A stretch of 64,000 nt of DNA, from positions 12,400,001-12,464,000 of the forward strand of contig OY740821.1 in assembly GCA_963514005.1 (NCBI GenBank). Reading direction: 5' to 3'. This DNA comes from Raja brachyura. Taxonomy: Eukaryota. The translations under genes were made by a program, and so were the position numbers. The notes beneath the pieces were generated by a model. The model was given only the letters and a program-made list of their open reading frames with translations. It was not told the origin of the DNA and did not search any database. Position 1 is the first letter of the stretch; the number at the start of each line of letters is the position of its first letter. Shown one piece after another: positions 30,199 through 30,292 of this stretch.

Positions 30199-30292
30199 GT
30201 CTGAAGAAGGGTCTCGACCCGAAACGTCACCTATTCTTTCCCTCCATAGATGCTGCCTCACGTGCTGAGTTTCTCCAGCATTTTTGTTTACC
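30199..30292 (+). mobile_element. Short Penelope-related element with intact hammerhead-like core
   Basis: GT-CTGAAGA-A-GGGTCTCGACCC-GAAA-CGTC; TSD TTGTCAT at 30192-30198 and 30293-30299. Confidence 0.85.

Follow-up and report, generated by a model that had tools for sequence, protein, structure and literature searches.

KMT2D-like exons were found at 43962–63444 on the plus strand of the window (the whole 64,000-nucleotide stretch analysed), where the best PDB match was KMT2D (E value 7.7e-35) and PHD fingers were located at ~50172, 62131 and 63301. A 404-codon open stretch at 57174–58388 was observed within the KMT2D-like region. Upstream of KMT2D and on the same strand, the exons at 600–12100 encode a small Ras-family GTPase, as assigned by the Pfam Ras domain; we take this gene to be Rheb-like. 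At 17300–18300 the sequence was richer in CpG, with an alternating TA/CG run near 18100, which is possibly the promoter region of KMT2D. A Tc1-type DNA transposon occupied 27615–29294 (minus strand), with inverted ends of ~257 bp and an interrupted transposase (Pfam HTH_Tnp_Tc3_2), and a related piece was found at 24643–24963. The open stretches at 2669–3340 (+), 35111–35548 (−), 53797–54240 (−) and 9060–9700 are presumably LINE-like fragments; three of the four were searched against Pfam and gave no match.

The element under study, at 30199–30292 on the plus strand, appeared from the alignment of its copies, the duplication search and the contigs to be a short pLTR-type end fragment without the tail. 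It begins with a minimal type I hammerhead motif (30199–30230), which was delimited by the sequence itself, a descriptor and the published consensus. Helix I consists of 2 bp, formed by GU at 30199–30200 and AC at 30229–30230. The core reads CUGAAGA (30201–30207), an extra A (30208), GAAA (30221–30224) and CGTC (30225–30228), followed by AC. Stem II has 4 bp, GGGT (30209–30212) pairing with ACCC (30217–30220) across a CTCG loop, and the G10.1-C11.1 pair corresponds to G30209-C30220. Helix III is reduced to the palindromic ACGU at 30224–30227, with positions 15.2–16.2 occupied by CG (30225–30226). From the fit to the consensus, the cut is predicted to fall after C30228. A second intact core was located at 22413–22440 (motif 22411–22442, plus strand), with the stem GGGU-UUCG-GCCC and AACGTT. 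The first-pass annotation had described both cores in these letters, which were found as claimed, and its proposal of a hammerhead-like core agreed with the minimal-hammerhead consensus of Penelope-like elements (PLEs) as given in the relevant part of PMC4209133.

The core pattern matched twice in the window (22413 and 30201), against 0.03 matches expected. The full minimal-hammerhead descriptor, which demanded a stem II of at least 4 pairs closed by G-C, the palindromic pair and a 2-bp helix I, returned the same two matches, and only one match in total was obtained over 300 dinucleotide-shuffled windows searched on both strands. Because both matches come from one repeat family, they are not independent; they show agreement of the family consensus with the descriptor and do not count as two separate events. 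A search of the whole window with the covariance models of the Rfam hammerhead families gave no match up to an E value of 5.

By BLAST and alignment, 13 copies of the family were identified in the window, 8 on the plus and 5 on the minus strand. The longest, at 22295–22543 (+, boundaries tentative), has a pyrimidine-rich tract upstream of its intact core and a tail to ~22532, and appeared to reach 116 bp further upstream than the short copies. Two arms, a minus arm at 145–239 without tail and a plus arm at 260–378 with tail, form a head-to-head pair (145–378) that represents one insertion. The copy at 9334–9424 (−) begins inside the core and was inserted in another repeat; it is located inside the LINE-like stretch at 9060–9700. 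In the copy at 54874–54965 (+), G12 was lost and stem II was broken. Three decayed members, at 8545–8640 (−, 5′ end approximate), 16205–16278 (+, core partly deleted, ends approximate) and 21578–21650 (+, with CTGATGA), belong to an older subfamily. The copy at 23424–23479 (+) retains the 5′ half only, that at 29948–30017 (−) is an old 5′-truncated copy with tail, and in the 5′-truncated copy at 4826–4888 (−) homology begins 0–2 bases from the predicted cut site. The further copies listed in the first-pass annotation all exist within a few bases of where they had been placed, except that those at 8565 and 16230, called tail-only remnants, have kept a damaged core, and that the older tailed copy at 55891–56007 (+), listed as a mutated core at 55895, carries all 11 core letters at 55897 and is broken in stem II. 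The older-subfamily copies hint at a helix I of 3–4 bp, of AGUU/AACU type and pieced together from decayed copies, against 2 bp in the younger ones.

In about 10 of the 13 copies the 5′ end is no more than ~10 bases away from the core; one copy reaches upstream and two are shorter. The 3′ ends of the copies lie either near +92 or ~25–30 bases beyond. The resulting tail of ~25–30 bp was present in copies 260, 22411, 55897 and 30017(−), and was missing in copies 30199, 54874, 9424(−) and 237(−). An optional 3′ tail of 30–40 bp is a feature of PLE pLTR fragments.

The duplication search covered 14 candidates, that is, the 13 copies and the pair. In 4 of them, duplications of 7, 14, 14 and 15 bp abutted the ends of homology, and no convincing target-site duplication was seen in the other 10. 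The element at 30199 is flanked by TTGTCAT on the left (30192–30198) and on the right (30293–30299). The head-to-head pair is enclosed by a 14-bp duplication (131–144 and 379–392), copy 9424(−) by one of 15 bp (9319–9333 and 9425–9439) and copy 54874 by one of 14 bp (54860–54873 and 54966–54979), each with one mismatch. For copy 22411, a possible fifth duplication of 14 bp with two mismatches (22281–22294 and 22544–22557) was obtained with a wide search window, and the tentative limits given for this copy depend on it. Around 5000 random 95-bp intervals, an exact 7-bp repeat turned up 31 times and a 14-bp repeat with no more than one mismatch only once, this null being computed within ±3 bases, narrower than the actual search. 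Candidates at 21581, 30017(−), 260 and 55897 were discarded as not abutting or too short. Head-to-head pairs with a tail on one arm only have been reported for PLE pLTRs (PMC3846280; PMC8557442). The target-site duplications, the optional tail and the identity of 145–378 as a single head-to-head insertion had not been recorded in the first-pass annotation.

Nine copies were aligned, the remaining four being too decayed or truncated. All 11 core letters were present in three of the nine (30199, 22411 and 55897). Core positions outside CpG differed in 3 of 89 cells (one of the three arose from misalignment), compared with 94 of 548 elsewhere, a contrast inflated by the way in which the copies were found and by subfamily differences. 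G12, which lies within a CpG, was lost in five of the nine copies. We read this pattern as a core that was probably conserved among parent elements or subfamilies and decays after insertion in a neutral-looking, CpG-type manner. Covariation in stem II, which had been proposed as a check, was not detected: two-sided compensatory changes numbered zero among the nine window copies, and 76% of 54 cells were paired, in a sample of few, decayed copies with low power. RNAalifold returned no consensus structure for the family, and the fold z-scores were unremarkable.

A helix I of 2 bp and a stem II of 4 bp can be drawn, both among the shortest published; a 2-bp helix I also occurs in the Culex, D. 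virilis and Oikopleura rows of the PMC4209133 supplement. Folding nevertheless predicted a competing hairpin at 30203–30239 (+), in which the core purines and the 5′ arm of stem II pair with bases just 3′ of the cut, with a pairing probability of 0.79–0.99. With the core purines engaged by pyrimidines immediately 3′ of the cut, stem II was predicted to form at 1% or less in both intact copies (probabilities in context of ~0.01 and 0.001). The double-hammerhead fold was calculated to be 12–13 kcal/mol less stable than two monomers, as estimated by nearest-neighbour folding, which ignores tertiary contacts, magnesium and proteins. According to PMC4209133, monomers of minimal hammerheads show no cleavage and dimers cleave weakly; 8 of 9 Xenopus dimers were reported uncut (bioRxiv 10.64898/2026.07.22.740005); and the anole PLE hammerhead is described as cutting only with protein, insertion having no need of it (PMC11167929). 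The 30199 copy is predicted to be catalytically silent in its present context, and the earlier caveat that these copies may be inactive was reinforced by the folding and by the CpG-type decay of the core. CTATCAG before the core was considered as a candidate splice acceptor, use of which would lengthen helix I in the way seen in D. virilis.

Contigs from four runs of four related organisms were placed on 29400–31200 at 85% likeness, giving 68,438 (X1), 62,134, 70,271 and 90,075 contigs, with 74% of the run read for the second and 92% for the fourth. The summed contig depth reached millions over the element, versus 3 to ~120 in the unique flanks, which shows that the family is very large, contig depth being no copy number. 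One contig of organism E ran from the left flank to 54 bases inside the element, with 38 differences over 853 bases (~4.5% flank divergence); the insertion at 30199 is therefore shared with organism E and old. The remaining junction-spanning contigs went less than 31 bases into the element and were not counted as bridges. Loose ends of contigs clustered at 30199–30201 (2422, 646 and 445 contigs in X1), with unrelated letters upstream (agreement 0.34). Head-to-tail joints were found in at least 16, 27 and 23 contigs of X1, and opposite-strand joints in tens of contigs as well. Among the 15 of 120 joints listed, none skipped the element as an empty site would. Matches to a 22-base pattern (3 + 2) were rejected as chance hits in unrelated DNA with no homology outside the pattern; the DNA-pattern scans gave no match in viral contigs, and the core pattern none in metagenomes.

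A motif scan revealed no PLE reading frame in the window, and Pfam searches of eight chosen open reading frames returned only a Tc1-type transposase, a survey that could miss short, degraded PLE remnants at other places in the window. The one open frame of the element matched four proteins, none of which has PLE domains, and among the proteins linked to the element none with a reverse transcriptase or GIY-YIG Pfam domain was found. In two separate protein records, P0004 and P0007, the element was joined to the same stretch of ~55 residues. In P0004 this stretch lies ~60 codons upstream of the element, across a spacer of the pyrimidine-rich type; in P0007 it comes after the tail, as in a partial tandem. 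For comparison we used a 20-position motif which we take to be that of the PLE endonuclease end. In a shifted frame, 19 of the 20 positions agreed in both P0004 and P0007, where the best of 200 shuffles reached 13, and 16 agreed in P0008, where the shuffle maximum was 14; P0011 agreed at only 10 of 20. This comparison is partly circular, because the motif was written after P0004 had been seen, and no Pfam domain confirms the endonuclease-end stretch. The stretch shared by P0004 and P0007 likely encodes a PLE endonuclease end, for which this indirect comparison is a good lead that falls short of proof. At its upstream end, copy 22411 can be read in one frame as GNIEF, resembling the last residues of the same presumed motif. 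Residues 20–140 of P0004 gave no PLE match among long proteins and no usable Atlas match.

The open frame of the element was also contained in P0003, an IMPG2 gene model of Leucoraja erinacea (little skate), so the family is present in skates. In P0002 it comes after a LINE-type endonuclease fragment. The element frames within P0002 and P0003 are likely gene-prediction artefacts or exonisation.

Taken together, we consider it probable that the element at 30199, which is predicted to be silent, is a target-site-duplicated insertion of what is likely a PLE pLTR end, and that the reverse transcriptase and endonuclease of a PLE likely wrote it in. The PLE endonuclease would nick the target; reverse transcription would start at either of two internal sites, ~92 or 120 bases downstream of the core, and would usually end early, at or near the core, giving dead copies of 90–125 bp; and repair would leave the target-site duplication. 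The hammerhead would likely stay intact only in parent elements, where it would cut only with a dimer partner and with the PLE protein. This chemistry is taken from published PLE biochemistry, and what the present DNA shows is its footprint: the motif, the duplications, two 3′ end points, the head-to-head pair, the very high abundance and the CpG-type decay. Two internal start sites of reverse transcription have been offered as the explanation of the optional tail in the anole element (PMC11167929). The origin from Penelope-like elements, suggested in the first-pass annotation, was supported by the insertion anatomy, as compared with that described in PMC3846280 and PMC8557442, and indirectly by the outside records. 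The further suggestion of a self-standing, non-autonomous SINE was not, because nothing shows that the short copies are templates and one longer copy runs further upstream.

The skate element resembles the minimal hammerheads of pLTRs in metazoan PLEs (Cervera and De la Pena 2014, PMC4209133) in CUGANGA, the extra base before stem II, G10.1-C11.1, GAAA, the palindromic 15.2–16.2 and UH, and also in the pyrimidine-rich upstream flank, the mostly dispersed single copies and the opposite-strand pairs. It differs in that its stem II of 4 bp and helix I of 2 bp are both at the short end, and in that its abundance appears far above the 4,000–9,000 given there for coelacanth and Xenopus, with the reservation that contig depth is not copy number; in the searched part of the supplement of that paper, no cartilaginous fish was found. 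In the green anole's Poseidon element PAc (Frangieh et al. 2024, PMC11167929), the hammerhead is likewise located ~90–120 bases upstream of two alternative insertion ends with an optional tail, but the PAc open reading frame starts in stem II, whereas no reading-frame start was tied to the skate element. The Penelope pLTRs of Adineta vaga (Arkhipova et al. 2013, PMC3846280) share head-to-head inverted pLTRs in one short duplication, a tail on one arm and solo pLTRs; the skate pair has no internal reading frame, its units are half as long, and its family shows duplications of 7–15 bp versus 8–10 bp. The animal non-LTR retrozymes (Li, Clavereau and Pollet 2026, bioRxiv 10.64898/2026.07.22.740005) are also related to PLE pLTRs, non-coding, hammerhead-bearing and found as many monomers. 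They are defined by tandem units and circular RNA, whereas the window copies are dispersed monomers whose tandems appear rare; no series of at least two tandem units in a row, each with a complete hammerhead, was found among the 13 window copies. The kind of element is thus already known, and the skates would be one more lineage with PLE minimal hammerheads, ordinary though very abundant. No description of this repeat family was found in a literature search of partial coverage, and Repbase, Dfam, subscription journals or the supplements of the 2026 retrozyme preprint may list it.

The clustering of starts at the ribozyme core may mark the 5′ end of a PLE mRNA. A more specific reading, which as a whole we regard as rather doubtful, is that the short copies are reverse transcripts of the 5′ leader of an autonomous Penelope mRNA, with a minority made from ribozyme-cut RNA. 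Transcription would begin at TCAGT just before the core, and the enzyme would prime 92 or 120 bases in and drop off the end of the RNA, so that fixed-length SINE look-alikes would be mass-produced without ever needing transcription of their own. A transcription start at TCAGT would explain the 5′ ends clustered at the core, and Penelope is reported to have an internal initiator and a downstream element (PMC2377424); a polymerase stop at the C-rich tract would also explain them. Copies from ribozyme-cut RNA would begin exactly at the cut site, as 4888(−) does to within 0–2 bases, but this is a single case and may be chance. If the reading were true, the genome would hold a countable fossil record of PLE hammerhead cleavage in vivo; the function of PLE hammerheads is treated as unresolved in PMC8557442 and PMC11167929. 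In so large a family one could count how many copies start at the core, how many at the cut site and how many at other places, which would test whether cut RNA ever serves as template.

We judge it improbable that the 90–125-base unit stands by itself as a non-autonomous element of SINE-like or retrozyme-like kind that carries an internal Pol II promoter or forms tandem dimers and is copied in trans by the PLE enzyme. The starts near the core in ~10 of 13 copies, the contig ends at 30199–30201 with unrelated letters upstream, and the existence of head-to-tail joints are what such an element would give, and TCAGT upstream with ACGT near +27 resemble the Penelope internal-promoter initiator and downstream element (PMC2377424), a matter of resemblance only; PLE-derived retrozymes have in addition been reported in one chondrichthyan (bioRxiv 10.64898/2026.07.22.740005). 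Against this, no tandem copy occurs among the 13 in the window, tandem joints amount to at least tens of contigs out of 68,438, and a further 116 bp of upstream sequence appear to belong to copy 22411. Moreover, according to PMC11167929, the anole protein needs RNA downstream of the start of reverse transcription (the first 172 nt of the reading frame), which is absent from the short copies.

Copies 22411 and 30199 are located between the Ras-family and KMT2D exon sets and are sense to KMT2D, and it is plausible, as had been suggested, that both cores (22413 and 30201) lie within a transcribed KMT2D leader intron. It is nevertheless very improbable that they work as dimer hammerheads which cut KMT2D pre-mRNA and have been retained for this purpose. 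Every core letter is present in both copies on the KMT2D strand, and the 30199 insertion is common to organism E at ~4.5% flank divergence, but the two copies are separated by 7.8 kb, helix I has 2 bp, and the predicted fold is locked and unfavourable to a dimer; published minimal hammerheads are, as cited above, inactive as monomers and weak or uncut as dimers. Six of the seven copies beyond 18 kb are sense to KMT2D with mostly broken cores, which, for a small count, argues against purging of active sense copies; all three copies inside the presumed Rheb-like gene lie antisense, a pattern that purging could give, with n too small. Equally far-fetched is the idea that the repeat is something unrelated, for instance a tRNA-derived SINE, and looks like a hammerhead by chance. 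This would agree with the lack of an Rfam match and of covariation and with the unremarkable fold z-scores, but the descriptor was matched only about once per 300 shuffled windows, PLE insertion anatomy was found independently in the same repeat, and the copies start at the core and have no poly(A) end. ARAGORN also detected no tRNA gene in the window, a search of little power where such heads have decayed.

The contigs also contained short tandem repeats of the hammerhead core alone, in which 30234 was joined back to 30199 with 1–4 letters between. CCTAT lies on both sides of the core and could seed such core-only tandems. Core-only dimers, having no locking pyrimidine tract between their units, would be the best candidates for active double hammerheads.
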